From positions 1 through 62,501 of the forward strand of contig JAGOSH010000003.1 in assembly GCA_018062425.1 (NCBI GenBank): a stretch of 62,501 nt of DNA, given 5' to 3'. Every line of letters starts with the position of its first letter. The stretch's first letter is position 1. Position numbers and translations under genes: made by a program. The stretch is from Minisyncoccota bacterium (GTDB lineage Bacteria; Patescibacteriota; Minisyncoccia; Phycocordibacterales; UBA9973). Below the pieces are notes generated by a model, which was not told the origin of the DNA, searched no databases, and saw only the letters and a list, made by a program, of their open reading frames with translations. Positions 10,589 through 31,113 of this stretch are shown in pieces.

Positions 10589-11680
10589 ATGGCAAAGAAA
10601 TTCAAAGTTGGCGTATTGGGGGCGACAGGGATGGTTGGACAAAATTATATACGACTACTCGACGGACATCCGTGGTTTGATGTGGTGTATGTAGCAGCAT
10701 CGGCAAACTCTGCTGGAGCTAGCTACGGTGAATCAGTAAAAGGACGCTGGCAAATGCACTCGCCTATTCCAGCGAATGTTGCTGGGCTTACAGTAGAAGA
10801 TGTAGCGAGCATAGAAAAAGCAAAAGAAGTTTGTGACTTTGTATTTTCTGCTTTTGAAATGTCCGACAAAGAACTGATAAAAGAAACCGAAAAGAAATAT
10901 GCCGAGGCTGGACTACCAGTAGTATCAAACGCTTCCGCCAACAGATGGACAGATGACGTGCCAATGCTCATACCCGAGATAAACGCTGACCATGCAGAGA
11001 TAATTAAAACTCAACAAGCAAACCATGGCTGGAACAAGGGTTTTATAGCTGTGAAGCCGAACTGTTCTATACAAAGTTACCTCACCCCGATACATGCGCT
11101 CGAGGCTGCTGGATACGAGATTGAGAAAATTATGATCACTACCATGCAGGCAGTGTCTGGTGCCGGATACCCGGGTGTACCATCACTCGATATGATCGAT
11201 AACATCGTGCCCTTCATCGGTGGAGAAGAAGAAAAGACAGAGAAAGAACCTCTAAAGATTCTAGGAAAAATTGTCGATGGAAAATTTGTAAACAGAGATG
11301 GGTTGAAGATATCTGCTACTTGTACTCGTGTGCCAGTGACTGATGGGCACACCGCAACTGTAAACATTTTATTTAAAGACAAAAAGCCAACCAAAGAAGA
11401 AATACTAGAAATATGGAGAAATTTCAAAAGTGTTCCCCAAGAACTCGACCTACCTTTCGCGCCAGTGCAACCAATACATTACACAGAAGAAGAAAATAGA
11501 CCCCAGCCGAAAAAGGACCGCGACTCTGACAAAGGCATGGCAGTAACAGTCGGACGTCTACGACCTTGTAATGTTTTTGATTTCAAATTTGTAGCCCTAT
11601 CCCACAACACCGTTCGTGGGGCAGCCGGTGGTGGAATTCTTAACGCAGAACTCTTGGTTAAGAAAGGATATATAAGTTAG
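10589..11680 (+). CDS. asd: aspartate-semialdehyde dehydrogenase
   Basis: GATGMVGQ Rossmann motif, active-site KPNCSIQ and [10 protein letters not shown]. Confidence 0.93.
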
Positions 11681-12768
11681 ATTCCTTCTTCTTTTAGTTT
11701 TTCTACGAGCTCTTTTTCTTTTCTGGAAAGTTTAGGTATTTTTATATTAAGTTTAACTAGCAAATCTCCGCGTCGGCCTTTGTTCGGCACACCCCGGCCT
11801 TTGACTCGCAATACTTCATTCACAGAGATACCTTCTGGTATATTGATATCTATTTTGCCGTCCAATGTTTCGATTGAATATTTTGCACCGAGCAGTGCGT
11901 CCGTAAGTTTGATGTCGAGGTTCATATACAGGTCACTACCTTCACGTTTGAATGTAGGATGTGGCATTACTCGTATTTTGATATACAAATCTCCAGCCGT
12001 ACCATTTGGCACAGCCTCCCCCGCACCGGTCATACGCAAAGAGTCTCCATTGTTGATGCCTTCGGGTACATTGATTGTGATTTCTTCTTGTTTGTGTAAA
12101 ACACCCTTGCCTTTGCATGTGTCGCAATGTTCTTTGGGTACTTCACCTCGTCCAGCACAAGTGTCGCAGACCTTGGTGCTAGATATGGTTCCCAGGATTG
12201 TCCTCTTGGCTTCTTGAACCTTACCTTTACCTTTACAGGTTTTGCAGGTTTCCATTTTGGTTCCGGGCTTAGCGCCGTCTCCGTTACAAGTAGAACACTT
12301 AGAAGTTTTAGATAAAAGTATTTTTTGAGTCACACCGAAAACAGAATCTGCAAAAGAGATTTGTATTTCGGTTGAGATGTCTCGTCCTTTTCTTTTTTGA
12401 GTACGACTGCCACCTCCACCAAAGAAGTCACTGAAGATGTCGTTCAAATCGAATTCCATTCCCCCGCCATTTTGAAAACCAGAAAAGTCGAAACCTTCGA
12501 ATCCACCGAATCCACCTTGGTAGCCACCCTGTTGGCCGCCGCCGAAGCCGCCCATGTTTTGGTAATTAGAACCAAATTGGTCGTATTGGGCGCGTTTCTG
12601 ATCGTCGGAAAGGGTCTGGTAAGCCTCGTTTACTTCCTTGAATTTCTTTTCATCGCCCTCCTTTTTGTCTGGGTGATATTTGTGCGCCAACTTATAAAAA
12701 GCCTTCTTTATTTCTTCTTTAGAAGCTTTTTTATCAACGCCCAATAATGCATAGTAATCCTTACTCAT
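11677..12768 (-). CDS. dnaJ: molecular chaperone DnaJ
   Basis: J domain with HPD (KYHPDKK), a G/F-rich linker and four CxxCxGxG repeats. Confidence 0.95.
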
Positions 12769-12776: not shown

Positions 12777-12804
12777 ATTATACTCATGGACGATAATAGG
12801 TCAA
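12777..12804 (-). promoter_or_regulatory. sigma70-type promoter of dnaJ (near-leaderless)
   Basis: Minus strand reads TTGACC (12804-12799), a 16-nt spacer, TATAAT (12782-12777), then 8 nt to the ATG at 12768. Confidence 0.5.
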
Positions 12805-12886: not shown

Positions 12887-14626
12887 TTAGTATACTTCCT
12901 GCTGGTAACATTTTTCGCAGTACACAATCTCCGGTCGGTCTGGGGCATAACTGGTTTCGAATTCTACATTACACTGACCTTGATGATTGGGGTGATTTTC
13001 TTTACCACACATACATTGACGATGCCAAAGTTTTAAAGGGGTACGTTTTTGTAACCTTTCATAATGTCGTGCATTAGGAGATTTTCTGGGAATTGGTACA
13101 TTCATTCTTTTATAAAAATTAAATTCACCAGGAGTAATGTTAAAAACTTTGGTTGAATAAAATTCTGTCGAATCCAAACAATCAAAAGCTTCTTTTAAAA
13201 TATCTTCTGAAACTTCCTTAATATCATCTGGGATATTTTCTAGACTCATGGTTGATTTATTATTTGTCTCTTGCGCGTTACCCCATAAAAATCCTTTTTT
13301 ATGGGTTTCTTCTTCGCTTAACACAGGAAAATACTCTTGCGCAATAGTTTTATTATAAGGAAATGGACTAAGTTCTCCTGGAAAAAATTCACCGAAACCG
13401 TATTTCGCTCCTCTCCTATCAACGTAAGGCATATCGTCCATGTGTTTCTTTATTTTTTCTACTATTTCGAAATAATCGTCTTTTGTATATTGTTTATTAA
13501 AAATACAGTATTGTTTTTTGTGTACTCCAATACAACCAAATAAATTTTCTGAATTATGACAAAACAACGAGTAACTCACGTTGTACCCTCCCCAACAACT
13601 TAACGAAAACAAAAGTTTACTACCGTTATCTCCTGAATCTATAACCTCGTACATTTGTTCTGCTGTAGCACCAGCGCCATACACATCATGGGTATCCTTA
13701 AGCCCAGCTGCACCACTTACACAATAAGAGCAATCCTCAGCATTATCTAGATCAAAAGATTTTTTGCAATTTTTTGTATTTGTAAAATAATCACCAGTGG
13801 AATTTACGGCATTTGTCTGATGAGAGTATTTATGAACTGCATTGATGCACAATTCATCAAACTCCTCTTTCAATTCAACAATCGAATTATAAGAACCTAA
13901 ATTCAATTCTTTTATTTTTTTATCATACTCAGGTTTACTTAATTGAATATTTCTAAAAACATATTGTTTGTTTCTTAAATTACTAGACATAAAACAATCT
14001 GTACATCCACGACAATCAAATAAAAAATAACTAGTAGTAATATTTACAGAATCTACTAAGTACTTACTTCCATAGCAACTTTGGCAATTAACCAAATCGT
14101 AACAAAAATCACATTTTATTGACCAATACAAATCAAGAGAATCTTTACTGTTTACGACTTTAGAACAATACATTACATCATCGCACCCCCACATTCCAAA
14201 AGACATAAAAACATTTTTGAGCTCACCGGCGTAATTAGTATAAGGACTATTGAAACTTTTAGCGTTAAAAAGAGGAATACTCGGTACTGTATTAAGAAGT
14301 TCTTTCCATTGCTGGAAAAAAGGCTTAGAAAAATCATAGTCTTTACCATAAGAAAGTGAATCAAATTTGTCACTCCACCAATAATCTCGATCCACTATAC
14401 TAACACCTGATTCTTCAGAAAAAGAAGTTATAACAGATTTACCAGTAAGCGAACATTTCCGTTTATATAAAAACCTTTCTCCTCTCCAAGCCATTCTCCT
14501 AACCAATCTACACTCCGGACAAAAAGTCGGTGGTGGAACTTTTATCTTTTCATAGAAAGAAAAGTCGTCTTCTTCTATAACGAAATCTTTTTTACAATTT
14601 TGGCAGTTTTTATTTTCGCTTGGCAT
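12887..14626 (-). CDS. cysteine-rich protein with terminal zinc-ribbon modules (paralog A, 579 aa)
   Basis: The N-terminus has CQNC-x24-CPEC. Two central repeats end in CFMSSNLRNKQY and LFGCIGVHKKQYCIFNKQYTKDDY. The C-terminus reads ...SYAPDRPEIVYCEKCYQQEVY. Paralogous to 17469..19214 and 19218..20915. Confidence 0.7.
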   Translation of the reverse strand: MPSENKNCQNCKKDFVIEEDDFSFYEKIKVPPPTFCPECRLVRRMAWRGERFLYKRKCSLTGKSVITSFSEESGVSIVDRDYWWSDKFDSLSYGKDYDFSKPFFQQWKELLNTVPSIPLFNAKSFNSPYTNYAGELKNVFMSFGMWGCDDVMYCSKVVNSKDSLDLYWSIKCDFCYDLVNCQSCYGSKYLVDSVNITTSYFLFDCRGCTDCFMSSNLRNKQYVFRNIQLSKPEYDKKIKELNLGSYNSIVELKEEFDELCINAVHKYSHQTNAVNSTGDYFTNTKNCKKSFDLDNAEDCSYCVSGAAGLKDTHDVYGAGATAEQMYEVIDSGDNGSKLLFSLSCWGGYNVSYSLFCHNSENLFGCIGVHKKQYCIFNKQYTKDDYFEIVEKIKKHMDDMPYVDRRGAKYGFGEFFPGELSPFPYNKTIAQEYFPVLSEEETHKKGFLWGNAQETNNKSTMSLENIPDDIKEVSEDILKEAFDCLDSTEFYSTKVFNITPGEFNFYKRMNVPIPRKSPNARHYERLQKRTPLKLWHRQCMCGKENHPNHQGQCNVEFETSYAPDRPEIVYCEKCYQQEVY

Positions 14627-14677
14627 TTTTTTATTCTGGTATTCTGCAGAATATGAGAATATTCATTAATCTTTGAA

Positions 14678-16126
14678 CTATATCATCGGTTCGGCTTCTT
14701 GTTCTTTGGGTGTATCGTCCTTTTTCTTACCAGATATTGCTTCTTTTTCTTCTTTACTACGGATAATGGTGGCTTCTTCTTCGGCTATCAATTTCTGGGC
14801 ATCATCTTTGGAGATAGAATATTTCCTGCGAGAAGATGCAATTATTTCTTCCTTGGAAGATTTATATGGTGGTGGTAGGACCCGAAGCGTTTCCGCCGAA
14901 AACGGGTCATACGATTCCCCATCGATGGTCATCTTGATATAGATTTCACCTACCGCCAGGTTGATCATATCTTTCACATCAAAAACTGGAGCGAATTCTG
15001 GCTTCAGTTTTACAGCGTCTTCACCACCCACCCGGAAAGAAATAATACTTCCCGTGTTTCCAAGCACTGCTTGATAAATCTTGGGATTAATCTGCCCCAC
15101 GTATTGGTGCGCCATAGTTAGATTTAGCCCATATTTACGCGCCTCAGACAGGATGTTTTCAAATGTTTGAGTCACTATATTTTGAAACTCGTCTACGTAC
15201 ACATAGAAATCATTGCGGTCCTTCTCTGCGATGTTGGCACGCTCCATACCGGCTTGTTTGATCTTGGTCAAGAACATCGAACCGAAGAAGCTGGAATTCT
15301 CTTCCCCGATTTTACCTTTAGAAAGATTAATGAAGATAATTTTCTTCTCATTCATCAATGTCGAAATATCAATTTTGTTTTGCTTCTGTCCGAAAATATT
15401 ACGGAGCAATGGGTCGGATAGAAACTGTCCGAGTTTGTTGACCAGTGGGATAATAGCGTCAGTGTCGAATTTCTCCGACCAGTCGGCGAATTCGATAGCG
15501 AAGAAACGCTTCACCATGTCGTCTTGAATGTACTCCACTACCTTCTGTCTATAATTTCTGTCGGTCAACATGGAGATCATCCCGCGCATAGTGGCATACG
15601 GATAGTCTAGTAACGCCAGACAAGTAAACCGGAAAACGTGTTCGAGACGTGGTCCCCAGTTGGAACCGAATTGTTTCTGTAAAACTTCGATGAGTCCTTG
15701 AGTAAGTTGAAATTTGAATTGCGGATCAACGTTCGCCAGCGGGTTAAAAGAAACTGGGAAGTCTCTGTCCGACGGATCAATGATACATACGTCTTCGATA
15801 CGCTCCTTTGGAATGTAGTCGAGCATTGCGTCTATCACATCGCCGTGCGGGTCAATGAGACATAGTCCGTGTCCGTAGGTGATGTCCTGGCGGAGCATGA
15901 GCTCTAGGAGTTTGGTTTTGCCGACTCCTGACTTGCCGATGATGTACAGATGGCGACGACGGTCTACGCGTTTGATACCGAAAATAAACTTCTTTTCTTC
16001 GAGTGCCGCTACATAGTTTGTCCGCCCGATAAAGGACACGTCCTCGGGATTCACCTTGCCGAAAATAGGTAACTCCGGTGGTGGAGGCGCGTATTTGATT
16101 ATCTGGACTCTGTTTAGTTTCGACAT
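14678..16126 (-). CDS. soluble VirD4/TraD-like (T4SS coupling-protein family) P-loop ATPase, 482 aa
   Basis: Walker A GKSGVGKT followed by IDPHGD, Walker B FYVYVDEFQN, and the AHQYVGQ motif. No TM helices. Paralog of 20908..23178. Confidence 0.75.
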   Translation of the reverse strand: MSKLNRVQIIKYAPPPPELPIFGKVNPEDVSFIGRTNYVAALEEKKFIFGIKRVDRRRHLYIIGKSGVGKTKLLELMLRQDITYGHGLCLIDPHGDVIDAMLDYIPKERIEDVCIIDPSDRDFPVSFNPLANVDPQFKFQLTQGLIEVLQKQFGSNWGPRLEHVFRFTCLALLDYPYATMRGMISMLTDRNYRQKVVEYIQDDMVKRFFAIEFADWSEKFDTDAIIPLVNKLGQFLSDPLLRNIFGQKQNKIDISTLMNEKKIIFINLSKGKIGEENSSFFGSMFLTKIKQAGMERANIAEKDRNDFYVYVDEFQNIVTQTFENILSEARKYGLNLTMAHQYVGQINPKIYQAVLGNTGSIISFRVGGEDAVKLKPEFAPVFDVKDMINLAVGEIYIKMTIDGESYDPFSAETLRVLPPPYKSSKEEIIASSRRKYSISKDDAQKLIAEEEATIIRSKEEKEAISGKKKDDTPKEQEAEPMI

Positions 16127-16148
16127 ATTGCCTACTTAGTGTATCATA

Positions 16149-16850
16149 ATGAGTATGAAAATACACCGATTTATTGGAGACTTTAATTTAACTGGAAAAG
16201 AGGTAGATATTACTGACCCCGAAAATATCAAACAAATAAAGGCTGTTTTGAGGATGGAAGTTGGAGACGAACTAATCCTGTCCGATGGGATAGGTGCAGA
16301 GGCCAGGGTAAAAATTATTGAAATATCCAAATCCAAAATGGTGTGTGAGGTTCTGGAAACAAAGAAAACAGAAGAGTCTGACAAGACAGTAAGTCTGTAC
16401 CTGGCGATTTTGAAAAAAGAAAACTTTGAACTCGCGGTGCAGAAAGCAGTGGAATGCGGGGTGGCACAAATAATCCCTGTCATCACCGAACGTACGGTCA
16501 AAGTCGGACTAAACATGGAAAGGCTGGAAAAAATAATAAAAGAAGCAAGTGAACAGTCTGGCAGAAGTATCCTACCGAAACTTTTTGAGACGATGAATTT
16601 CGTCGAGGCATTAGAGCATGGTAAAGAAAATCAAGAAAAAGTAATTTTTCATCTAGTAGATACAGAATACCTACCCGAAAAAAATGCATCCTCGGTTAGT
16701 ATTTTTGTCGGGCCTGAAGGCGGATTTAACGAAAGCGAAGTAAATCTAGCAAAAGAATCCGGCTACACTGTCGCCTCTCTGGGCACACTCACCCTCCGTG
16801 GTGAAACCGCAGCAATAGTAGCCACCTACCGAGCAGTGCAAGGAATTTAA
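16149..16850 (+). CDS. rsmE: 16S rRNA (uracil1498-N3)-methyltransferase
   Basis: RsmE-like N-terminus (M)KIHRF..., a PUA-like domain, and the C-terminal SPOUT motifs GPEGGF and LGTLTLRGETA. The true start may be the ATG at 16155, 7-8 nt after TATCAT at 16142-16147. Confidence 0.85.
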   Translation: MSMKIHRFIGDFNLTGKEVDITDPENIKQIKAVLRMEVGDELILSDGIGAEARVKIIEISKSKMVCEVLETKKTEESDKTVSLYLAILKKENFELAVQKAVECGVAQIIPVITERTVKVGLNMERLEKIIKEASEQSGRSILPKLFETMNFVEALEHGKENQEKVIFHLVDTEYLPEKNASSVSIFVGPEGGFNESEVNLAKESGYTVASLGTLTLRGETAAIVATYRAVQGI

Positions 16851-17458
16851 CTCTTGTTTTTGTATTTTAATCGCAAGATAAGAACAGTTACTATGAAAGT
16901 CGAGATGACAGACCGCGAACCATAAACTATGGGTAGTAACGACATTGTTTTTATCGGTTCAACCAAACCAAAAAGAGAGGCTGCGCAGTTGGTGGACCAC
17001 ATCCCGACAGATTCAGTATTTTCTGTAGCTTTCCATAATTGCACCAAGGTAGGCAAATAAGCAATAACGAGTATGGCTTGGACAGCTAAATGTGCCAAAA
17101 TGTTTTGACCACTTATAATCCATGCAATAAAAACAAAAACCACAGCGCCCAAACAACGTTTTTCAAACGTATTAAAAATCTTTCTGGAGTCATTCCTGGA
17201 CAAAATAACTCCGCATATAATAAATACCGAAAGTGTATCAACAACATTATAAGAATTAGCCAACAAACCCGGAACACCACTTTCTTTAAAATTGGTAACA
17301 AGACTGAGTAAAGTTGCAAACACAAAGAAAATCCACGTCGCTAGTACCGGCTTCACTTTTCCTTTTTCAATACCAACCAAATATATAATAGTGTAGGCCA
17401 GGACGCACAACACCATAGCAATCTGAGGCAAAAATTTTATTATTGGGAATAACGTCAT
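16847..17458 (-). CDS. hypothetical polytopic membrane protein
   Basis: About 6 hydrophobic helices. The start is placed at internal Met (MTLFPII...), 10 nt after the stop of the upstream Cys-rich gene. The longer ORF (to 17563) would overlap that gene. Confidence 0.55.
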   Translation of the reverse strand: MTLFPIIKFLPQIAMVLCVLAYTIIYLVGIEKGKVKPVLATWIFFVFATLLSLVTNFKESGVPGLLANSYNVVDTLSVFIICGVILSRNDSRKIFNTFEKRCLGAVVFVFIAWIISGQNILAHLAVQAILVIAYLPTLVQLWKATENTESVGMWSTNCAASLFGLVEPIKTMSLLPIVYGSRSVISTFIVTVLILRLKYKNKS

Positions 17459-17468
17459 TGAATTAGGT

Positions 17469-19214
17469 TTAATACACCTCTTGCTGATAACACTTTTCAC
17501 AATACAGTGTGTAGCCTTGTTTCGGGTCAAAGAGGGACGAGATGCTTTGGTTACACTTTGCACACTCAGCCTTGTACGAAATACCTAGCGGTACCATGGT
17601 AAAATGATTTTGAATACGCAAAGAAGGATGCACCAATGGAATCGGCAATTGCATGACCCGATAAAATTGGAGTTCGCTTTCGGTAATTCGAAAAGGCCTT
17701 CCAGTTACTTCACATTTGATGGCAAAATTTATAATGTCATCTTTAGTACCCTCTATCGTTTCTGGAATATCGCTACCAGATAAAACTTTGGTGACTCCTG
17801 CATTAGTATCGGGCTCTGACGCTATATACCCGCCAAGCTTTATAATTTCCTCGTCAGTAAGCGGAAAGGAAACTTGAGCGTGGGAAAAGTTGTATGCTTG
17901 CGCAGAAAATTCAAACCCTAATCCGTCTCCATACTCTCCCCTTTGCATCATGTCTGTTTTAATTGTGTCTACCAAGGCGAAATACTCTTCTGGTATGTAT
18001 TGTTTATTGAGCACGCAATAAGATTTATTTTGCAATCCAAAACACATGAAAGAATTGCTGACATTTCGGCAGTTAAAAATAAACTCGGAATCGGTGCAGA
18101 ATTTGCCCGCCACCGAAAACTTTACATTGTTAGATGACGAACCAATGTTAGTGGCGCTATAGAGCAAGCTTGAACCACCAGAGAATGTGACATCCATCGA
18201 GTCTTTGTGGGCAATGCACCCATCTGAGTGGCGAATATGTTCGGATTTTTCTGAATCAGTGACATTGATAAGGTCTTTACTGTTTTCAAGGAGAACACCA
18301 TCAACCCCGTTAACGACGGTGTTCATAGATGCATTGACCGGGGTTTGCTTTACCAGGGCCCAGAAACTTTTATCATACTGTTTTATTTTGTCTCTGGTGA
18401 GGGGGTACACAGCCTGCATAAAATTTTCATATGCTTCTTTTGAAAGCTGCTCATTCCACACACGATACTTTGCATTACGGAGCCCTACACAACCAAAACA
18501 ATTTGTAGAGTTGCGACAGTCAAATAAAAACATACTGTCGGTACAATCTTTGGAAAAATACATAAAAGCCGACTTGTAAGAATTATCAACAAAGGCGCTG
18601 CAGTATATATGATCCGAACTATGAATTGCCCGAGAATCCATAATGTCTTTACTTTTATTAACCAAGCTACAGTACCAAGCATTTTCTACAGAAAAACAAC
18701 CTCCGGCATAATATACATTCTTGGTATCTCTTCCTCCGTTTGAATATTCACTGTTGATGCTGGCTGGGTCACGATTTAGAAACGATGGAACAGGAAAAGA
18801 CTTTCGCATAGTAGATAGAACACCCATAGGACCTTCGTCTTCTTTGTACAATACACCGTACAAGAATGGATCAAATTCACCACCAGTGAAATACTTGTAA
18901 TCAAAAACAGGGAAAGGACATTCCTCTGAAAAGACTGAAATCATCGACTCGGTATGCCCTGTCGCATCACACGGCCTCTTGAAAAGTCGGAGTAGTCCCA
19001 TGTGTACAAAACGTCGCATTCGCCGACAAGTTGGGCAAAAGTTTGGCGGTGGAACACGAAATGTTTTCAAGAACCCAATGTCTCCTTCCTCAATATTAAA
19101 TTCTCCTTCACAATGTTTATGTTCGCCTTTCCATCTGCAAGTACGCGCATGAGGAACCAGATCTTTTAAGACTTCGTCGATTAATGCGTCGAATTTTGGG
19201 GTTTTGGATTCCAT
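17469..19214 (-). CDS. cysteine-rich protein with terminal zinc-ribbon modules (paralog C, 581 aa)
   Basis: The N-terminus has ...PPPNFCPTCRRMRR. Central motifs are NCFGCVGLRNAKY and FMCFGLQNKSYCVLNKQY. The C-terminus has CAKC-x17-CEKCYQQEVY. Confidence 0.7.
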   Translation of the reverse strand: MESKTPKFDALIDEVLKDLVPHARTCRWKGEHKHCEGEFNIEEGDIGFLKTFRVPPPNFCPTCRRMRRFVHMGLLRLFKRPCDATGHTESMISVFSEECPFPVFDYKYFTGGEFDPFLYGVLYKEDEGPMGVLSTMRKSFPVPSFLNRDPASINSEYSNGGRDTKNVYYAGGCFSVENAWYCSLVNKSKDIMDSRAIHSSDHIYCSAFVDNSYKSAFMYFSKDCTDSMFLFDCRNSTNCFGCVGLRNAKYRVWNEQLSKEAYENFMQAVYPLTRDKIKQYDKSFWALVKQTPVNASMNTVVNGVDGVLLENSKDLINVTDSEKSEHIRHSDGCIAHKDSMDVTFSGGSSLLYSATNIGSSSNNVKFSVAGKFCTDSEFIFNCRNVSNSFMCFGLQNKSYCVLNKQYIPEEYFALVDTIKTDMMQRGEYGDGLGFEFSAQAYNFSHAQVSFPLTDEEIIKLGGYIASEPDTNAGVTKVLSGSDIPETIEGTKDDIINFAIKCEVTGRPFRITESELQFYRVMQLPIPLVHPSLRIQNHFTMVPLGISYKAECAKCNQSISSLFDPKQGYTLYCEKCYQQEVY

Positions 19215-19217
19215 ATT

Positions 19218-20915
19218 TTAATATACCTCTTGCTGATAACACTTTTCACAATACACTATTTCCGGTCGTTCGGGAGCATAGCTAGTTTGGATTGAAATTT
19301 GGCATTTACCGCAATTCCTCTCAAAAAGCCGCCATTTGTTAACTCTGTCGATCCGTCTGTTGTGTCTGCAATTGGGACAACTCCGCGGAACGGGTAATGA
19401 TAAGCGTTTTAATAATTCCAACTCACCAAGTGCTATACGATAAGGTTTAGTACACAGAGTACAAGCCAACACTTCTTTGGTAACAGCATCTGTAATATCG
19501 GAAATACTATCAGGCAAGTCAGCAGTATTTTTGGTTATATTGTGTTCTCCGCTTTTAATCTCTGAAAAGATAAAACCCTTGTTTTGAATTTCTTCTTTCG
19601 TCATTGGAAAGTATTGGATAGCATAAGACGCGTTGTAAGAAAATGGCGACAAATCATAAGGCATAAACTCACCGTATTTGAATATTCTTCCTTGACTATC
19701 CACATAAGGGTTCGCTTCTAGACTATTTATTATTTGTTCTCGCAACTTCTGGTATTCTTCTTTTGAATACTGCTTGTTTAAAATACAATACTGTTTGTTG
19801 CGCAAACCCACGCAACCAAAGCAGTCACTCGAGTTTATTACATACATACTGTATTCAACGTTTTTAACATTACTCCACACACCCGAAGAATACTTCACCT
19901 GGTATATACCTTCACCTGCCGTTATAGAATCAACACAAGACTCTACACCGCTACCCCATTCGCTGATATCATATGAGTCTTTAAATGAAGGCAAGGTTAT
20001 AAACTGGCAATATTTGGCATCATCTGCAGAAGCAGTCATGTAAGAATTCTTAACATTTTTAGAAGCGTATACATACTCACCGGTTACGTTTACGTTCATC
20101 CGGCCGTACATGAAACGACGGGGAAACTTATTCCAAAAGTCATGAATACTTGATTGAATCAATTTATGGTAAGAATATTTGTCTAAATTCATACTTTTTA
20201 TTTTTTCTAAATATTCTTCTTTAGAGTATGCTTGGTTGAATATGTGGTAGCTTTTATTACGCAAATTTACACATCCAAAGCAATTCGTACAACTGACACA
20301 ATCTTTGGAATACCATACATCGACTGATTCTGCACAATTTTCAGAAAAGAAAATCCGTGACCCATCACCACCAATACATTCGTAAGCAAATTCAGTCTTA
20401 TTCATCATCAAGCAGTCAGCAACATCTTTAGAATGGTTTACGATGGTAGAATAGTATACATTTTCGCAAAAGTCGGCATTGAATAGCAGGTAACAATTTT
20501 TACATCCGCCTGCGTGATTTATGTAATCACTGTTTTTGAGGGTAGAATAAGTAACTACCAAATTCATTTTGGGAGTTTTTAACATCAGATCCTTCAGTTG
20601 GTCAAAAAAGTTACGACTCGAGTCGTATTCCATTGCATACTCTGTACCATCCCAGGAGTCACCCCACCAACAAGATCCACAATATATAGTTTTATGTATC
20701 TCGGGATCAAAAATAGTAACTACATTTTTAGTGCACAGATCACAAACAGCTTTGTAAAGTGTTCGCTCATTGCGAAAAGCCATCCGTCTTTGCAATCTGC
20801 ATTCCGGACAAAAAGTCGGTGGTGGAACTTTTATCTTTTCGTAGAAAGAAAAGTCTTCGGGTTCGATGATAAAATCTGTTTTGCAATTTTGGCAGTTCTT
20901 GGTTTCGTTATTCAT
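19218..20915 (-). CDS. cysteine-rich protein with complete N- and C-terminal 8-Cys zinc-ribbon modules (paralog B, 565 aa)
   Basis: N-terminal module: CQNC-x24-CPEC-x18-CDLC-x17-CGSC. C-terminal module: CTLC-x24-CPNC-x18-CGKC-x17-CEKC. Central motifs are NCFGCVNLRNKSY and DCFGCVGLRNKQYCILNKQYSKEEY. Its start overlaps the ATPase stop by 8 nt. Confidence 0.75.
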   Translation of the reverse strand: MNNETKNCQNCKTDFIIEPEDFSFYEKIKVPPPTFCPECRLQRRMAFRNERTLYKAVCDLCTKNVVTIFDPEIHKTIYCGSCWWGDSWDGTEYAMEYDSSRNFFDQLKDLMLKTPKMNLVVTYSTLKNSDYINHAGGCKNCYLLFNADFCENVYYSTIVNHSKDVADCLMMNKTEFAYECIGGDGSRIFFSENCAESVDVWYSKDCVSCTNCFGCVNLRNKSYHIFNQAYSKEEYLEKIKSMNLDKYSYHKLIQSSIHDFWNKFPRRFMYGRMNVNVTGEYVYASKNVKNSYMTASADDAKYCQFITLPSFKDSYDISEWGSGVESCVDSITAGEGIYQVKYSSGVWSNVKNVEYSMYVINSSDCFGCVGLRNKQYCILNKQYSKEEYQKLREQIINSLEANPYVDSQGRIFKYGEFMPYDLSPFSYNASYAIQYFPMTKEEIQNKGFIFSEIKSGEHNITKNTADLPDSISDITDAVTKEVLACTLCTKPYRIALGELELLKRLSLPVPRSCPNCRHNRRIDRVNKWRLFERNCGKCQISIQTSYAPERPEIVYCEKCYQQEVY

Positions 20916-23178
20916 CGCCGTTTAGGATTTTGCGTAGTACATCTTCGGGAACTTCTTTCGGTGTTTCGCTTACAGGCGGAGCTTTTGGTGGTTCGGGCGG
21001 TTTTGGAACTGGTGGCGGTATTGGAGTTGGATCTGTCTCGGTCACCTGAGTATCATCTTTAACCAAAGTCGGTTTTGGTTCAATTTTTGGAAGCTCTACT
21101 TTTGGAGGTTCTACTTTAACCGGCTCGGGAGCCTTTACTGGTTCAACTTTAATTGGTTGTGGTTCTGGCTTTGCCTCGCTGAAGTCTTTGACGAAAGCGG
21201 GTTGTGGGTTTGTTGGCTCTACTTGAGTTTTATCGATTAGGTTTTTGAGTGCATTCATTTTGTCTTCGCCGGCACTGCGGTCGGATGGATTACTCACTGG
21301 CTTCTCTATCGGCTTCAACGCTGAAAGTGAAATAGGTGCTACTTTTTCGGGTTCTACTTTAACCTCCTCGGTTATAGCGCCAGTTTGTAGTGCGGTAGCT
21401 AGTGCAGATTTGAGCGATGTTTTTTGTCCGGCTTCGTATTGTTTCTTTACCCTCTCGTCTTTGTTAAATATTTTTTTAAGATTACCAAAAACTCCAGGCT
21501 TGTGTGGCCTATTGTCTACTGGTATGTCAGTACGTCTGGTATCGTGGGCTTGATTTGGACGATCCGGATGTGGACGTGGGGGCCTAGATTCTTCCCTTCT
21601 TTCTGGTTCGAATTCTATACCCAAATCAGCCAAAGGTTTGTAATAAATAGCCTTGTTCTTGGCAGTGTCTGATTCATTTTTCAAAGGTTTCAATTCCCCT
21701 GCTTTTATCTTCGCTATACAATCCTTACAGTAAACTGGTCGTCCTGGTTGAGGCTCGAACGGCACAAAAGTTTCATTACCACAAACAGAACACTGGGCTT
21801 TGAATTTATCACCACCAGAGCCGGCTCCGCCTGATTTGCTCGTGCCTGTGCCACCCTCACTCGCAGCTACGGTACCGCTCCATTCCACTATATCTGCTTC
21901 GACTTCTTCACGATTGCGACAATACAGAGCACGGGAACTTTCAATAACTGCTTGCTCAATTTCTTTGTTCACTGTTTTAATAAGCGGGGGCATGGTCTTG
22001 GCAGAAAATGGACGTGAGGTCATACCGTCTACCATCAGCTTCAAATATATTTTGAAGTTTGGCAGGTTGACTATGTCTCCTGGGGTGAATTCTGGATCAA
22101 ATTCTTTCTCTAAATATTTTGTATCCTCCGCACCTGTGCGGAAGATGATCATGGTACCGATGTTACCGAAAATAGAATCTCGCATAGAGGAGCTTTCGCG
22201 AGTTACCAGCTGGGCTGTATACTGGTGTGCTACAGTCAGAGACAAACGGTATTTGCGAGCTTCCGATAGGATGCTGGCGAAAGAGTCCGTCACAAAGTTC
22301 TGGAACTCGTCGACATACAGATAGAAATCCCTACGCTCATCCTCTGGGATACGTACGCGCTCCATAGCAGCGAGCTGGATTTTGGTAATCAACATTCCAC
22401 CAATTAGACGCGAGTTGTCCTCGCCGATGCGGCCTTTGGATACGTTCACCAGCAATATCTTGCCCTGGTTCATCAGGTCGAAAATATTGATGGTGCTTTT
22501 TGACTGACCGACGATGTTACGAATGACGAAAGTGGATAGGAATTGACCTACTTTGTTCTGAATCGGCGCGATGGCTTCATTACGGAACTTGTCCTGCCAG
22601 GCTTCGTACTCGTGCACCCAGAAAGCTTTAATCACCGGGTCTTTCAAATTACCGATAATCATCTGGCGGTAATCCTTGTCCACAAGCATACGGGTAACAC
22701 CGAGCAGTGTGGTACCAGGAGTGTCGAGGAGCGCCAGGATGGTGTTGTTCAAAATGTATTCCATACGAGCAGACCAAGCGTTGGCCCAAATCTTGGTAAA
22801 TATACCCATGAGTCCGGATGCTACCAAGTGTTTATGTTCGGGATTTTCTATTTCGAGTACGTTGAATCCGATATGAAAATCTGTGTCTGACGGGTTGAAA
22901 TACACCACGTCTTTGATACGCTCTGGAGGAATGGAAGATAAAATAGTTTCCACCAGCTCACCGTGCGGGTCCACTACGCCGACACCCTCGCCGTTCATGA
23001 TGTTCTGATAAACCATGTTGGTCATCAATCCGGATTTACCAGTACCGGATTTGCCGAGTATGTACATGTGCTGACGACGGTCCTTGCGCTTGATGCCAAA
23101 GAGCTGATTCTGATCGCGATAAGTAGAGTAACCGATATAAGTTATATCCCGATTCTCCGGGAGACCTGGAATTGCCAT
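20908..23178 (-). CDS. soluble VirD4/TraD-like P-loop ATPase with C-terminal CxxC-x17-CxxC zinc ribbon and Pro/Lys/Glu-rich tail, 756 aa
   Basis: Walker A GKSGTGKS, VDPHGE, Walker B FYLYVDEFQN, and AHQYTAQ. Further C-terminal come CSVC-x17-CKDC and a low-complexity region of roughly 250 aa (PEPVKVEPPKVELPKIEPKP...). Confidence 0.8.
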   Translation of the reverse strand: MAIPGLPENRDITYIGYSTYRDQNQLFGIKRKDRRQHMYILGKSGTGKSGLMTNMVYQNIMNGEGVGVVDPHGELVETILSSIPPERIKDVVYFNPSDTDFHIGFNVLEIENPEHKHLVASGLMGIFTKIWANAWSARMEYILNNTILALLDTPGTTLLGVTRMLVDKDYRQMIIGNLKDPVIKAFWVHEYEAWQDKFRNEAIAPIQNKVGQFLSTFVIRNIVGQSKSTINIFDLMNQGKILLVNVSKGRIGEDNSRLIGGMLITKIQLAAMERVRIPEDERRDFYLYVDEFQNFVTDSFASILSEARKYRLSLTVAHQYTAQLVTRESSSMRDSIFGNIGTMIIFRTGAEDTKYLEKEFDPEFTPGDIVNLPNFKIYLKLMVDGMTSRPFSAKTMPPLIKTVNKEIEQAVIESSRALYCRNREEVEADIVEWSGTVAASEGGTGTSKSGGAGSGGDKFKAQCSVCGNETFVPFEPQPGRPVYCKDCIAKIKAGELKPLKNESDTAKNKAIYYKPLADLGIEFEPERREESRPPRPHPDRPNQAHDTRRTDIPVDNRPHKPGVFGNLKKIFNKDERVKKQYEAGQKTSLKSALATALQTGAITEEVKVEPEKVAPISLSALKPIEKPVSNPSDRSAGEDKMNALKNLIDKTQVEPTNPQPAFVKDFSEAKPEPQPIKVEPVKAPEPVKVEPPKVELPKIEPKPTLVKDDTQVTETDPTPIPPPVPKPPEPPKAPPVSETPKEVPEDVLRKILNGDE

Positions 23179-23200: not shown

Positions 23201-23238
23201 AGCCGAAAAAAAGCCCAGGTAGGGGCTTTTTTTCGGCT
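23201..23238 (-). terminator. intrinsic terminator after the DUF3467-like gene
   Basis: 16-bp stem agccgaaaaaaagccc/gggctttttttcggct with a short loop. Confidence 0.7.
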
Positions 23239-23254: not shown

Positions 23255-23521
23255 CTATTTGTTCAAATCTGACATTTGAATTGGACTTTGCACGGATGGC
23301 GGGTTCATGTCTATGGCGCCGAATTGCTTCTCGTAGCTTGCAACCTGAGAACTCATCCAGTCTGCAATGCTTTTCATCACCTGCGGAGTTGTGGCGAAAG
23401 CGTCCAAGGCGTTGCCAGAGGTAAAAGCGAAAGAGAAAAACTCTTTACCGAAAGCTCCCATGGCTCCATCTACAAACTTCTTTGGTAACTGATTCATATC
23501 TACTTTTGTTGGGTCTATCAT
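23255..23521 (-). CDS. DUF3467-like small protein
   Basis: The 88-aa C-terminal half (...TPQVMKSIADWMSSQVASYEKQFGAI) resembles the DUF3467 consensus as I recall it. Confidence 0.5.
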   Translation of the reverse strand: MIDPTKVDMNQLPKKFVDGAMGAFGKEFFSFAFTSGNALDAFATTPQVMKSIADWMSSQVASYEKQFGAIDMNPPSVQSPIQMSDLNK

Positions 23522-23671
23522 ATATTTTTTGTTATTTTTATAATCTACTCTAACCTTATCACAGTTTAGAACTTCTTAATAACTTTCTTTTTCTTGGGTT
23601 TTTTGGCAGAGATTTGGCAATATCAATTAGAATTTCGACCAGGTTTGGGACTTGAGAAACCTGGGACTCTT

Positions 23672-29205: not shown

Positions 29206-31113
29206 TTACGCTTTCGGTTCTTCTCCTTCCTGATGCTCGTGGTCGTTGACTTCGGTTGGTTGTTCTTCCATTGTCGCGCCGGAGCTTTCAGCGGAGGCGG
29301 AGTCGGCTCCTCCGGCTTTTTGAACGGCTTCACCAATCTTAGACATTTCGTTTGAAAGTTCTTCGGTGGCTTTCTTGATAGCTTCAGCGTCGGTGCCGTC
29401 TTTGAGTCCACGAAGAGCGGTAATCTTTGCATTCACTTCATCCTTTAATTCCTGTGGAATCTTGGCATCGTTATCTTTCAACGCTTTCTCGGCTGTATAC
29501 ATGATCATCTCTGCAGTGTTTTTCACATCTACAACTTCTTTCTTTTTCATGTCTTCTTCGGCGTGAAGTTCTGCATCGGCCTGCATCTTCTTGATCTCAT
29601 CTTCCTTCAGTCCAGAGCTTGCTTCGATCTTGATAGAGTTCGCTTTGCCTGATGCTTTGTCCTTGGCAGTCACATTTAGAATTCCGTTGACGTCTACATC
29701 AAATGAAACTTCAACCTGTGGCATACCGCGAGGTGCTGGTGGCACTCCGTCGAGGATGAACCGGCCGAGGGATTTGTTGTCAGATGCCATCGGGCGCTCG
29801 CCTTGGACGATGTGGATTTCTACACTGGTTTGGTTGTCCGCTGCGGTCGAGAATACTTGGGATTTGTTGGCAGGGATGGTGGTGTTCCTTTCGATAAGCT
29901 TGGTAGCTACACCGCCGAGAGTTTCGATACCAAGTGATAGCGGGATAACGTCGAGCAGTAGAACGTCTCGTACATCGCCTTGTAGAACTCCAGCCTGTAC
30001 CGCAGCGCCGAGCGCTACGACTTCGTCAGGGTTGATGGATAGGTTTGGAGTCTTGCCGAATACTTTCTTCACTTCTTCTAGAATCTTTGGCATTCTGGTC
30101 TGACCTCCAACCATAATGATTTCATTCATGTCTTCCATTTTGAATCCAGAAGCAGCCATAGCACGCTTGGTGATCTCGATAGATCGAGTTATGTATTCGT
30201 CAGCAATAGACTCGAGCTGGGCGCGAGTCATCTTGAGCAGTAAGTGTTGTGGACCCTCTGCGGTTGAGGTTATAAACGGAATATTGATTTCAGTTTCGAT
30301 AGCAGTAGATAGCTCAATCTTGGCTTTTTCTGCGGCTTCGTCGAGGCGTTGCAATGCTAGGGCGTCTTTGCGTACATCTACACCCGAAGTCTTTTTGAAT
30401 TCGTCCGCAATCCAAGCGATGATCTTGTGGTCGATGTCACGTCCTCCGAGGTGAGAGTCTCCGTCGGTAGATTTAACTTCGATAACATCATCCCCGATTT
30501 CAAGTACTGACACGTCGAATGTTCCTCCTCCAAAGTCGTACACCACAATCTTCTCATTCTTCTTTTTGTTAAATCCGTATGCGAGTGCTGCTGCTGTAGG
30601 CTCGTTGATGATACGCTTCACATCTAGTCCGGCGATAGCTCCAGCGTCTTTGGTGGCCTTTCTCTGTGCATCGTTAAAGTATGCAGGCACCGTGATGACT
30701 GCTTCGGTAATCTTTTCTCCGAGTTTTGCTTCTACGTCAGCTTTAATCTTGCCGAGTATCATCGCGGACACTTCTTCTGGGCGCATCCATTTGTCGCCGA
30801 TTTTTACTTCGACTCCGCCGTTTGCTCCCTTTTGGATTTTGAAAGACATATTCTTCAAATCCTTCTGTACTTCTGGATCTTCGAAGTTGTGGCCCATGAA
30901 CCTTTTAATTCCGTAGATTGTGTTTTCTGGGTTTGTTACTGCCTGACGCTTGGCCAAGAGTCCCACCAATCTATCCATATTCTTTGCAATCGAAACAATC
31001 GACGGGGTGGTACGAGCACCCTCTACGTTTTCTATAATTTTCGGTGCACCACCTTCGATGATGGCTACTGCCGAGTTAGTTGTACCCAAGTCTATACCTA
31101 TGATTTTTGACAT
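29206..31113 (-). CDS. dnaK: molecular chaperone DnaK
   Basis: [18 protein letters not shown], and a full-length Hsp70 architecture. Confidence 0.97.

Follow-up and report, generated by a model that had tools for sequence, protein, structure and literature searches.

The closest described relatives of the ATPases reported here are the coupling proteins of type IV secretion systems (T4CPs), including TrwB of R388, VirD4, TraD, Cag-beta, and DotL, which share a P-loop domain of the RecA type, a helical insertion separating Walker A from Walker B, and, after Walker B, the motif set E..RK......AHQ..Q (PF12696). One subunit of a coupling complex, DotN, binds zinc. In Xanthomonas X-Tfe proteins (XVIPCD) and in the Legionella DotL-IcmSW-LvgA-DotN system, a conserved terminal recognition module is joined to an otherwise variable protein, and both repertoires comprise many paralogues with genes near the coupling ATPase. 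TraJ of the conjugative plasmid pIP501 is a T4CP without a TM domain, for which TraI, a small two-TM protein, is the proposed anchor in trans (PMC12857230). [quoted passage not shown]

The window (the whole stretch of 62,501 nucleotides that was analyzed) contains five minus-strand ORFs that encode two such ATPases and three Cys-rich proteins: the long ATPase AL (20908..23178, 756 aa), C565 (19218..20915), its divergent paralogue C581 (17469..19214; second N-terminal Zn site degenerate), the short ATPase AS (14678..16126, 482 aa), and C579 (12887..14626), downstream of AS. AL and C565 overlap by 8 nt, and the gaps from C565 to C581 and from AS to C579 are 3 nt and 51 nt; no further copies of either family were found in the window. 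Coordinates and pairwise comparison bear out the ORFs, spacing, motifs, and paralogies given in an earlier note on this DNA, which also called the Cys-rich proteins giant, a word that does not suit proteins of 565 to 581 aa. The 16S rRNA methyltransferase gene rsmE (16149..16850, plus strand; Pfam Methyltrans_RNA and PUA_4) sits between the AL-Cys-Cys unit and AS, as it does in about 16 other loci, and its insertion on the opposite strand makes the cassette in the window two transcription units. Just upstream of AL, a GC-rich hairpin (23201..23238, assigned to neither strand) with a 16-bp stem and A/T runs on its flanks probably acts as a terminator in both directions, delimiting the AL-C565-C581 unit.

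AL and AS are 43% identical over 438 aa (E = 5e-129), both have GKSGxGK, DPHG[DE], FYxYVDEFQN, and AHQY, and they retain the Walker A, Walker B, and arginine/glutamine motifs as well as the T4CP motif set after Walker B; their Cys content is 0.6 to 0.7%. Both score above the Pfam gathering scores for PF10412, PF02534, and PF12696 (AL, TrwB_AAD_bind 53.2 bits and TraG-D_C 30.2 bits; AS, T4SS-DNA_transf 29.1, TrwB_AAD_bind 28.7, and TraG-D_C 24.2). The best Foldseek match of the AF2 model of AS is TrwB (E = 6e-14, TM 0.62 to 0.66, ~410 columns), followed by HerA, Cag-beta, and DotL, and the T4CP-like helical insert spans aa 135 to 259. Profile and predicted fold therefore support the earlier assignment of both ATPases as T4CP-like, of the TrwB/VirD4 kind. 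Unlike known T4CPs, they occur as two differentiated paralogues per genome with housekeeping-level conservation, are unlinked to VirB4, a relaxase, or any mobile element, and, in AL, carry a zinc ribbon and a long tail. In AL, the ATPase domain (aa 1 to 445; nt 21844-23178) is followed by the ribbon, CxxC-x17-CxxC (aa 459 to 491; nt 21706-21804), which is present in 54 of 56 AL homologues and passes both TIGR04272 (49.2; cut-off, 36) and PF23477 (zf_Tbcl_2, 46.5 bits). The tail that follows is K/P/E-rich and disordered and ends in ...EVPEDVLRKILNGDE; among AL homologues its median length is 223 aa, with a conserved terminal peptide, KEVPEDVLRKILE. AS likewise ends in a conserved peptide, ...EAEPMI. 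These extreme C-terminal peptides bring to mind the tail of TraD, which in the F system binds TraM. Across 80 metagenome loci, AS shows 81 to 96% identity, compared with a DnaK median of 82%; at the level of sequence, AS is thus as conserved as DnaK and far more conserved than AL, and the two are ancient, differentiated paralogues.

Ordinary coupling proteins left behind or carried by a conjugative or other mobile element would account for the T4CP Pfam domains and for the best NCBIfam matches, which are conjugative families (CD1115, SXT TraD, and TOL TraD), but every equivalog cut-off is missed widely (e.g., 53 versus 250). The surroundings instead support a core-chromosome locus, with dnaK (29206..31113, minus strand; HSP70 E = 6e-243), dnaJ (11677..12768, minus strand; Pfam DnaJ, DnaJ_C, and DnaJ_CXXCXGXG), grpE (32150..32755), rsmE, clpB, alaS, and infB. 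The GC content of the cassette is that of its surroundings, there is no tRNA-flanked island around it, and in thousands of relatives both its position and its sequence have been conserved. No VirB4, relaxase, or integrase was found among the ~45 larger ORFs of the window that were scanned; a pilin or a small integrase would lie among the small ORFs. These observations agree with the earlier view that this is not a canonical conjugation or T4SS locus, and a mobile-element origin, to which we give next to no credence, is refuted for practical purposes.

A role in anti-phage defense or conflict, which the earlier note had listed among its options, would make the ATPases HerA- or mad8-like motors working with variable sensor or effector proteins. 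There are matches to PADLOC mad8 (2e-13 and 7.5e-14) and weak ones to HerA; the variable paralogues form arrays, and a homologue is found in Bacillus phage G and in phrog_5156. Defense genes, however, are patchy and fast evolving, whereas AS is conserved at the DnaK level, 96% of Patescibacteria genomes have VirD4-type homologues, in about two copies, the location on the core chromosome is fixed, and the paralogues are old and orthologous between genomes. Furthermore, 2.9 million viral contigs yielded a single, fragmentary match to the Cys-rich family, and no effector domain, whether nuclease, Sir2, TIR, or another, came to light. We consider defense very unlikely, given the conservation of AS.

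The Cys-rich proteins (4.0 to 5.5% Cys) belong to a family of cytoplasmic proteins of ~565 aa that, at 50% identity, falls into 5,307 clusters or more, with about 10 old paralogues per genome that differ in their bodies. C565 and C579 are 39% identical (E = 7e-144), and C581 is 28 to 32% identical to both (E = 1e-71 to 1e-77); an orthologue of C581 with 74.5% identity in another locus indicates that it is an old, retained subfamily. The AF2 model of C565 (pLDDT 87.9, pTM 0.87) has double Zn-ribbon modules at both ends (aa 1 to 95 and 471 to 565) and, between them, a beta-helix-like repeat (~113 to 231), helices, a second repeat (~263 to 384), and a conserved segment (403 to 470), with internal duplications detected by hhalign (E = 3.7e-24 and 1e-29). 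Across the family, conservation is highest in the terminal modules and variability greatest in the middle; entropy is lowest in the outermost modules, whose Zn ligands show 88 to 99% conservation. Small Methanosarcina proteins with the CxxC-x17-CxxC motif bind zinc (PMC12704099). The TIGR04272-type ribbon that had been expected here is clear in AL, whereas C565 passes only PF23477, and narrowly (28.0; cut-off, 27), scoring 18.8 against the 36 needed for TIGR04272, and C581 falls below both cut-offs.

No characterized enzyme, family, or fold that would explain these proteins was matched in profile, sequence, or structure searches, and the architecture of four ribbons and a double repeat has no counterpart in PDB or BFVD. 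The strands of the central repeats have a period of 6, as in left-handed beta-helix (hexapeptide) proteins, but there is no Hexapep Pfam match, the fold matches to LpxA, LpxD, GlmU, and gamma-carbonic anhydrase are weak (Foldseek E 0.07 or worse, TM about 0.1), and no acyltransferase catalytic residues were identified.

The earlier note had called the ATPases soluble. Indeed, no TM-like segment was found in AL, AS, or the Cys-rich family, with one or two exceptions among 56, 103, and 258 homologues, respectively. Instead of the N-terminal TM helices of T4CPs, however, the family has a ~350-aa N-terminal DUF8128 domain, here encoded by a separate gene (46918..48303, minus strand; 461 aa), and the two predicted N-terminal TM helices of this protein (windows from aa 14 to 38 onward) qualify that description. 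We infer that it represents the ancestral N-terminal half of AL and AS, now split off, and that it anchors them to the membrane. Its relatives carry the precomputed annotation PF26449, and in five loci a DUF8128 homologue is found immediately upstream of AS or AL. It aligns with aa 49 to 245 of phage G gp156 (hhalign probability 96%, E = 1.5e-9), a fused DUF8128-ATPase adjacent to the VirB4-like ATPase gp155, with no Cys-family gene seen there; phrog_5156 likewise has the DUF8128 and AS/AL domains on one protein. In a divergent lineage, two loci on Patescibacteria-like contigs encode fused forms of 746 to 747 aa; these share 52% identity with AS, terminate in EEPLI, and adjoin arrays of five to seven Cys-family genes. 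No TM segment was found in the fused DUF8128-ATPases, so membrane anchoring is not universal. A precedent is pIP501, where ATPase and anchor are also encoded separately in a monoderm-type system (PMC12857230), although TraI is small compared with the 460 or so residues here and pIP501, as a conjugative plasmid, encodes a relaxase but no Cys-rich partner family.

Comparison across genomes showed one conserved AL-(Cys)n-AS cassette on one strand, which on gene order and sequence is a chromosomal system of Paceibacteria (Patescibacteria): AL, zero to five Cys genes, AS, and sometimes more Cys genes. The cassette replaces the twice-repeated ATPase-Cys module of the earlier note, since in the window-like clade AS is followed by a close Cys gene, the C579 position, in only 3 of 62 loci (8 of 23 in the GTDB set), whereas AL precedes a Cys gene in 21 of 42 and a Cys gene precedes AS in 33 of 65. 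The pairing itself is conserved and survives rearrangement: orders differ by lineage (AL-Cn-AS, AS-C-C-AL, AS-C9, and Cn-AL), but ATPases and Cys families stay together, with one to nine Cys-family genes beside the ATPases. Among 80 loci found through AS, 58 of 62 testable ones carry, on the same strand and no more than 1 kb upstream, either a Cys gene (43 loci) or AL (15 loci); AL is present in 27 of 29 with 8 kb of flank, and all 244 genes are codirectional. In 80 species-representative loci found through the Cys family, no other family is nearly as frequent as the ATPase, which is present in 28, versus at most 10 for any other. We found no paper describing this linkage. Of the three possibilities that the earlier note had raised against its own proposal, namely, a pairing not conserved in relatives, a standard conjugative or T4SS element around the genes, and a Cys-rich family matching an unrelated enzyme, none is borne out by these results.

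In the window-like clade, the cassette occupies precisely the interval from dnaK to dnaJ; dnaJ follows AS in 73 of 80 loci, dnaK precedes AL in 26, and some twelve loci have the plain order dnaK-AL-AS-dnaJ without intervening genes. The window also holds grpE and clpB, and DnaJ itself uses a Cys-rich zinc domain. The ATPases might then unfold or remodel proteins with DnaK, DnaJ, and GrpE, with the Cys-rich zinc proteins as redox- or zinc-sensitive cochaperones or clients. We regard such a proteostasis machine as improbable. The link is clade specific, with no dnaK or dnaJ near the AS-C-C-AL, AS-Cn, or fused-ATPase loci; in the window, a strong promoter-like site (12804..12777, 11 of 12 matches) serves dnaJ separately, AL comes after a strong hairpin, and ~6 kb of low-GC ORFs lie between dnaK and AL. 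Regional synteny (cysS, recR, dnaB, and rplU) is conserved in the same loci, so the adjacency may be inherited, and dnaK and dnaJ are probably context rather than components.

A cytoplasmic nucleic-acid machine independent of any T4SS deserves more weight, although we consider it rather unlikely. AL and AS would be DNA or RNA/RNP translocases like FtsK, HerA, and TrwB, and the Cys-rich proteins zinc-ribbon loaders or accessory factors, possibly tied to ribosome and RNA metabolism or to the handling of imported DNA. DNA is the ancestral substrate of TrwB, FtsK, and HerA, the best structural matches, and the housekeeping-level conservation of AS, the core-chromosome setting, and the repeated presence of rsmE inside the cassette fit such a role. 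Treble-clef and zinc-ribbon modules are often nucleic-acid binders, and JGI names some family members "Zn ribbon nucleic-acid-binding protein." In other bacteria, divergent single-copy members without a nearby ATPase follow Der, precede YchF, or lie near TrmD, MnmA, MiaB, or RNase III; two others are beside NUDIX genes, and one is fused to a GNAT domain, suggesting an intrinsic cytoplasmic role of the family. However, housekeeping neighbors are to be expected by chance in genomes of 0.6 to 1 Mb, and no nucleic-acid-binding domain was detected in the Cys-rich proteins by profile or fold beyond generic zinc ribbons, the closest hint for the C-terminal ribbon being a LIM-type protein-interaction finger (E = 0.02, not significant). 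About 10 old paralogues with variable bodies would be odd for a loader. More genomes contain VirD4-type homologues (2,918) than VirB4 (2,407 assemblies), but these proportions (96% versus 79%) are also expected from incomplete MAGs when two genes are compared with one.

The reading we prefer, tentatively and at somewhat less than even confidence, is that a split coupling-type ATPase, possibly in the service of the Patescibacterial T4SS, has the Cys-rich proteins as its clients, whether as cargo or as adaptors. AL and AS would form one or more ring ATPases, tethered to the membrane through DUF8128 in the lineage of the window; the terminal zinc-ribbon modules would be handles gripped by the ring or by the C-terminal peptides of AL and AS, with AL bearing one such ribbon in cis, and ATP hydrolysis would thread or remodel the Cys-rich proteins. 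These would most likely be passed, as cargo or cargo adaptors, to the T4SS, whose loci in Patescibacteria seem almost never to encode a coupling protein of their own. The idea of handles follows from the conserved outermost modules, the PF23477 ribbon common to AL, and the conserved terminal peptides. Many old paralogues with a variable body recall effector or adaptor repertoires such as those of X-Tfe and DotL, by analogy only, as no sequence or fold relationship was found and the Cys family has folded ribbons at both ends and no toxin or immunity domains. The position of gp156 beside the VirB4-like gp155 and the VirD4-type homologues in most Patescibacteria genomes, few of them near virB4, are in keeping with a T4SS connection.

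Several observations weigh against clients. Folded, zinc-bound ends are unlike the disordered tails typical of T4SS signals, zinc-stabilized domains would resist unfolding, and coupling proteins are not usually conserved at the level of DnaK, as AS is. VirB4 was seen neither in the window scan nor in any locus examined, single-copy relatives in other bacteria have no ATPase nearby, many of the Cys genes in Paceibacteria are >8 kb away from the nearest ATPase, and the fused DUF8128-ATPases lack TM segments. In "Ca. Southlakia epibionticum," as cited in PMC12102498, the T4CP homologue was reported to be nonessential despite an essential T4SS. Overall, the cluster joins two highly conserved conjugation-type motors and a separate membrane partner to a large, uncharacterized family of zinc-binding beta-helix proteins.

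All five open reading frames (ORFs) lie on the minus strand at the coordinates that the earlier note had claimed: a long coupling-protein-like ATPase (AL; A756 in the window, 20908 to 23178), a short one (AS; A482, 14678 to 16126), and the Cys-rich proteins C565 (19218 to 20915), C581 (17469 to 19214), and C579 (12887 to 14626). The 8-nt overlap of A756 with C565, the 3-nt gap between C565 and C581, and the 51-nt gap between A482 and C579 were likewise recovered. The ATPases, proposed to be paralogues, are 43% identical across 438 residues (E = 5e-129) and both carry the four motifs attributed to them, and the three Cys-rich proteins, also proposed to be paralogous, are 28 to 39% identical over their full lengths, with Cys contents of 4.0 to 5.5% versus 0.6 to 0.7% in the ATPases. 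No extra copies of either family were found elsewhere in the window, and Rfam and tRNA scans detected no RNA features in the cassette region. The window belongs to the ordinary core chromosome of a Patescibacterium with low GC (~40%) and includes ddl, a Mur ligase, lysine-pathway genes, dnaJ, rsmE, dnaK, grpE, rpoA, the gene for ribosomal protein S4, alaS, mnmA, mltG, typA, clpB, infB, and three tRNAs, and the idea that the cassette is the remnant of a mobile element seems to us scarcely credible. The claim that VirB4 and relaxase genes are missing held among the ~45 larger window ORFs compared with Pfam, and neither gene was found in three further annotated loci (L162, L170, and L172). Elsewhere in the window, at 36976 to 39590 (minus strand), a 418-aa FtsA/PilM-like protein (weak PF14450 match) is followed by a 448-aa protein without a family; the pair also occurs in L162 and could be a divisome or pilus-assembly pair.

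Gene order was compared in two sets of loci, one of 80 species-representative genome loci anchored on Cys-rich genes (Cys genes) and the other of 80 metagenome loci anchored on AS. Named relatives all belong to Paceibacteria/Parcubacteria (e.g., Nomurabacteria and Staskawiczbacteria). In the Cys-anchored set, Cys genes stand in tandem on one strand, with as many as nine or ten copies per array, and the commonest other family near them is the ATPase (28 loci, with every other family in 10 or fewer); many Cys genes are located far from any ATPase. In the AS-anchored set, all 244 genes are codirectional (244/244) and the recurrent order is AL-(Cys)0-5-AS. Within 1 kb upstream of AS, on the same strand, there is a Cys gene (43 loci) or AL (15 loci) in 58 of the 62 loci with upstream flanking sequence, and AL is present in 27 of the 29 AS loci with a complete 8-kb flank. 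With the limit set at 400 nt, the gene after AL is a Cys gene in 21 of 42 cases and AS in 11 of 42, and a Cys gene precedes AS in 33 of 65 cases but follows it in only 3 of 62. The twice-repeated module of an ATPase followed by Cys-rich proteins, as the earlier note described it, therefore gives way to a single cassette, which in the window reads AL-C565-C581-[membrane protein, with rsmE at 16149 to 16850 on the opposite strand]-AS-C579. The pairing of ATPase and Cys-rich genes is itself kept across genomes, though in a different unit from the one claimed, and in other lineages the order is AS-C-C-AL, six to nine Cys genes come after AS, or a Cys array leads into AL. Persistence of linkage through such rearrangement argues for a functional connection rather than inherited synteny. 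Cys paralogues have a median best identity of 42% within a locus versus 65% across loci, so the arrays are not recent duplications and the paralogues are old. In short, the observation in the earlier note was sound, and its interpretation is partly supported.

Two membrane proteins accompany these genes in some loci. The one inside the window's cassette (16847 to 17563, minus strand; 238 aa from a GTG start) has multiple transmembrane (TM) segments and no Pfam family, and its homologues occur in 49 of 80 related loci, mostly 3' of dnaJ; because an ORF from the GTG start shares its first 95 nt with the end of C581, a later true start is probable. The other, a 172-aa protein (positions 4223 to 4741 of the homologous locus L066), has a single TM segment and carries an RNDLVH (Rx4H, HEPN-like) motif in a helical domain. 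Of the five loci that encode it (L066, L069, L045, L025, and L004), three place it between DUF8128 and AS and two beside Cys genes. The window lacks a homologue, and the protein matches neither Pfam nor NCBIfam.

In the clade of window-like loci, the cassette lies between dnaK and dnaJ (in the window, 29206 to 31113 and 11677 to 12768, both on the minus strand). DnaJ follows AS in 73 of 80 loci, DnaK precedes AL in 26, and about a dozen loci read dnaK-AL-AS-dnaJ. This embedding would suit a role linked to Hsp70, but it is specific to the clade, other cassette arrangements being free of any dnaK/dnaJ link, and in the window the transcription signals are separate: dnaJ has its own promoter-like site (11/12 matches) and a hairpin with a 16-bp stem stands just ahead of AL. 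We therefore down-weight the chaperone reading and consider it improbable. The dnaK and AL genes of the window are further separated by ~6 kb (23255 to 29111) of ten small minus-strand ORFs, with a GC content of 0.33 to 0.34 versus ~0.41 and hardly any Pfam matches (one SDR and one weak DUF3467); since dnaK and AL are just 41 to 858 nt apart in related loci, this block looks like an insertion.

Both ATPases contain Walker A (GKSGxGK), Walker B (VDEFQN), and RKY...AHQY, and the catalytic motif residues are invariant over AS homologues and A756. Both exceed the Pfam gathering scores of TrwB_AAD_bind, T4SS-DNA_transf, TraG-D_C, and DUF87, and the coupling-protein matches anticipated in the earlier note were obtained for PF12696 (24.2 and 30.2 versus a gathering score of 22) and PF10412 (28.7 and 53.2 versus 20.5). 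Both widely miss the NCBIfam equivalog cutoffs for TraD, VirD4, and CD1115, the best scores being 53.1 versus 250 for CD1115 and 52.3 versus 366 for SXT TraD. The AlphaFold2 model of A482 (modest pLDDT of 76; pTM of 0.77) is built on a RecA-like core into which seven helices (aa 135 to 259) are inserted between Walker A and Walker B. In a Foldseek search of this model against the PDB, the 28 best matches were all TrwB chains (E = 6e-14; TM score, 0.62 to 0.66; ~410 columns), followed by HerA, Cag-beta, and DotL. The predicted fold of AS is thus the coupling-protein (TrwB) fold. Sequence searches of the PDB with single proteins and with Cys-family, AS, and DUF8128 profiles returned just one Walker-A-level TrwB match and one nonsignificant LIM-finger match. 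We rejected membership in the FtsK/SpoIIIE or HerA families: FtsK_SpoIIIE (PF01580) gave no match at E ≤ 0.1, the DUF87 (HerA central domain) match (26.4 and 35.9 bits) covers only the shared P-loop core, and HerA (TM score to the A482 model, 0.39 to 0.49) ranks below TrwB structurally. A place in a defense system of the MADS type is suggested by a PADLOC match to mad8 (E of ~1e-13), the only defense profile matched, but the match is confined to the generic ATPase core and the ATPases are nearly universal and highly conserved in sequence; for these reasons we reject this reading as very unlikely.

AL and AS are differentiated paralogues. AS proteins are ~500 aa long and AL proteins are ~700 aa long. 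Conservation of AS is such that the 120th-ranked database match keeps 82% identity, and across shared loci the median identity to the window protein is 85% for AS (somewhat inflated, as shared loci were picked by AS similarity), 82% for DnaK, 65% for DnaJ, and 61% for AL. A CxxC-x17-CxxC zinc ribbon follows the ATPase domain in 54 of 56 AL homologues, and A756 passes both TIGR04272 (49.2 versus 36) and PF23477 (46.5 versus 27), the ribbon families that had been put forward for checking. Beyond the ribbon, AL has a K/P/E-rich tail of ~220 aa with the conserved terminal peptide KEVPEDVLRKILE, the tail of A756 ending in …EVPEDVLRKILE; the terminal peptide EVPEDVLRK may resemble the FtsZ C-terminal peptide. 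The C terminus of AS is a conserved EAEPMI.

The earlier note remarked that both ATPases lack the N-terminal TM helices of coupling proteins, and indeed a TM-like window is absent from A482 and A756 and present in only 3 of 159 homologues. In five diverse loci, a membrane protein of ~455 aa, which is a candidate for the lost part, is encoded just 5' of AS or AL (0 to 27 nt away in three of them); its window homologue (46918 to 48303, minus strand; 461 aa) lies 24 kb away and has two predicted N-terminal TM helices. A precomputed PF26449 (DUF8128) annotation is carried by all 120 listed homologues of the window protein. In phrog_5156 (824 positions), positions 61 to 186 match DUF8128 and positions 386 to 819 match AS and AL (E = 4e-53 and 1e-66). 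Similarly, gp156 of Bacillus phage G (825 aa) matches the DUF8128 profile at aa 49 to 245 (probability, 96%; E = 1.5e-9), its C-terminal half aligns to AS (26% identity; E = 1e-30), and the neighboring gp155 is a VirB4-like ATPase (P-loop_TraG). Two independent metagenomic contigs (L170 and L172) have five to seven divergent Cys genes, with products 26 to 37% identical to C565, followed by a 746- to 747-aa protein that is annotated with DUF8128, T4SS-DNA_transf, DUF87, and TrwB_AAD_bind, shares 52% identity with AS, and has EEPLI at its C terminus. A junction segment, APPxxLP, is kept at the C terminus of split DUF8128 and at the N terminus of AS. Taken together, phrog_5156, gp156, and the fused proteins of the two contigs indicate that DUF8128 corresponds to the N-terminal half of these ATPases, split off as a gene of its own. 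No TM segment was found in the fused DUF8128-ATPases, so we rejected DUF8128 as a universal membrane anchor and assign anchoring to the split Paceibacterial version rather than to the whole family; there, DUF8128 with its two predicted TM helices may supply the ATPase anchor in trans. There is a precedent in pIP501, whose TM-less coupling protein TraJ is paired with a separate membrane protein, TraI, as its proposed anchor (PMC12857230).

In the jumbo phage G (L163), gp155 and gp156 occupy record positions 89194 to 93336, and more distant homologues occur in SPO1-like Bacillus phages (e.g., gp27.4). Directly upstream of the window's DUF8128 gene, and likewise in L162, is a 343-aa protein with Sigma70 region 4 and HARE-HTH domains (48349 to 49380, minus strand).

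The Cys-rich family is large, with at least 7,984 significant matches among 5.8 billion proteins, and wherever the source supplies a name among the 120 listed matches, it is "hypothetical," a generic zinc-ribbon label, or that of a Patescibacteria-group MAG. Its profile matched at least 5,307 clusters at 50% identity among 1.84 billion cluster representatives (2,241 at E ≤ 1e-30), and nearly all of the best 150 clusters have a common length and architecture. Profile matches are limited to the terminal ribbons (zf_Tbcl and zf_Tbcl_2, mostly near or below cutoff). The ribbon assignment of the earlier note was borne out by PF23477 (cutoff of 27) for C565 (28.0), narrowly missed by C581 (25.6), and not reproduced for C579, which had no match despite keeping the ribbon ligands. 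The CxxC-x17-CxxC ligands are 98 to 99% conserved family-wide and are predicted to bind zinc, as small archaeal CxxC-x17-CxxC proteins do experimentally (PMC12704099). No signal peptide or TM segment was found in the Cys-rich proteins.

The AlphaFold2 model of C565 is confident (pLDDT, 87.9; pTM, 0.87), and a Foldseek search against the PDB and BFVD gave nothing significant. Weak fold matches were to phage zinc-ribbon proteins and left-handed beta-helix proteins (the latter with E of 0.07 to 1 and TM score of ~0.1); strands in the center of the model have a period of six residues, and the proteins have no Hexapep Pfam match. In profile-profile comparison, the N-terminal double-ribbon module (aa 3 to 83) resembles the C-terminal module (probability, 99.6%; E = 3.7e-24), and the first beta-helix-like repeat resembles the second (probability, 99.8%; E = 1e-29), both repeats terminating in CFGCVxLRNKxYxIxNxxYSKEEY. 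Across 274 members, entropy is lowest in the outermost modules (1.4 to 1.6 bits) and highest in the repeats (2.2 to 2.5 bits), and ligands at three zinc sites are 88 to 99% conserved; a fourth site survives in only about half of the members and is degenerate in C579 and C581. Repeat 1 of C565 closes with CxxCxxCxxC (aa 206 to 215; ~20271 to 20300), whose Cys residues are 76 to 96% conserved in the family; repeat 2 keeps just one or two of them, and model pLDDT there is 64 to 74. An Fe-S site at this run, for which there was a weak radical-SAM-pair match (E = 0.009), was rejected given low model confidence and no family match, and a fifth metal site, though possible, has no support. The sole Cys-family match in 2.9 million IMG/VR viral contigs, a short contig-end fragment (L161, 5001 to 5123), is probably misbinned cellular DNA.

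Composition, conservation, the modelled fold of AS, domain fission and fusion, and the architecture and conservation pattern of the Cys-rich family are thus established, and they can be set against what is reported of orphan coupling proteins. A survey by Quinonero-Coronel et al. (PMC12102498) found that 2,918 of the 3,035 Patescibacteria genomes have VirD4-type homologues. Their total of 5,713 amounts to roughly two per genome, in agreement with AL plus AS, and only 148 are near virB4. The survey also detected the Patescibacteria-clade VirB4 in 2,407 assemblies and said that the orphan genes were possibly "exapted for other functions." Full-text searching found no description of the Cys-rich family, DUF8128, or their linkage to the ATPases. 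As far as the searched literature shows, the cassette is undescribed as a system and joins a known kind of ATPase to two uncharacterized partner families.

We propose that AL and AS would form one or more ring ATPases, joined to the membrane in the Paceibacterial lineage by DUF8128. The ATPases may engage the Cys-rich proteins through the conserved terminal ribbon modules, the C-terminal peptides of AL and AS, or both, and the Cys-rich proteins would be clients (cargo or adaptors); the Patescibacterial T4SS, which lacks a linked coupling protein, is a plausible system for them to serve. This client reading, which we hold to be plausible if short of probable, best fits the conserved handles, the variable body, the many old paralogues, and the adjacent coupling-type ATPase. 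Its main rival is a nucleic acid or ribonucleoprotein (RNP) machine independent of the T4SS, which we regard as possible but rather unlikely. Several points favor that rival over clients: the Cys-rich termini are modelled as folded and zinc bound, AS is extremely conserved, no VirB4 linkage was seen, and the VirD4-type homologue of the Saccharibacterial "Ca. S. epibionticum" is, as cited in PMC12102498, not essential. Divergent single-copy Cys-rich members without a nearby ATPase also point that way, as they lie beside Der, YchF, TrmD, or NUDIX genes (two cases), and one is fused to a GNAT domain. A 731-aa member with an N-terminal GNAT acetyltransferase domain (P0495; L165, 8001 to 10196) comes from what looks like a genome from outside Patescibacteria (with IMPDH, GMP synthase, POR, and a flagellar-type ATPase). 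The Der GTPase gene comes immediately before, its stop overlapping the start of the GNAT-bearing gene, and cysteine desulfurase, mnmA, miaB, and RNase III genes lie further upstream.

A large part of bacterial diversity belongs to Patescibacteria, which lead an episymbiotic life, and in the single tractable species the T4SS is essential. Orphan VirD4-type genes now gain a defined genetic system of two differentiated ATPases, one conserved like DnaK, together with a detached DUF8128 N-terminal domain and a tightly linked Cys-rich family. That family comprises at least 5,307 clusters at 50% identity, its architecture is new, and in genomes of <1 Mb a single locus holds as many as ten copies in tandem. 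Arrays of "hypothetical proteins" thereby become cargo or adaptor candidates open to testing, and gene fission offers a source for the apparently missing membrane anchor, which would act in trans. The function of the system is now directly testable. A more doubtful proposal is that the cassette belongs to an undescribed, near-universal Patescibacterial translocation system, in which a ring motor split into DUF8128 and two ATPases of the coupling-protein fold would recognize double zinc-ribbon handles and export, or load onto the essential T4SS, ~10 beta-helix proteins per genome. If this is true, these ~10 proteins would be the effectors or adaptors that have long been sought behind the episymbiosis of Paceibacteria.
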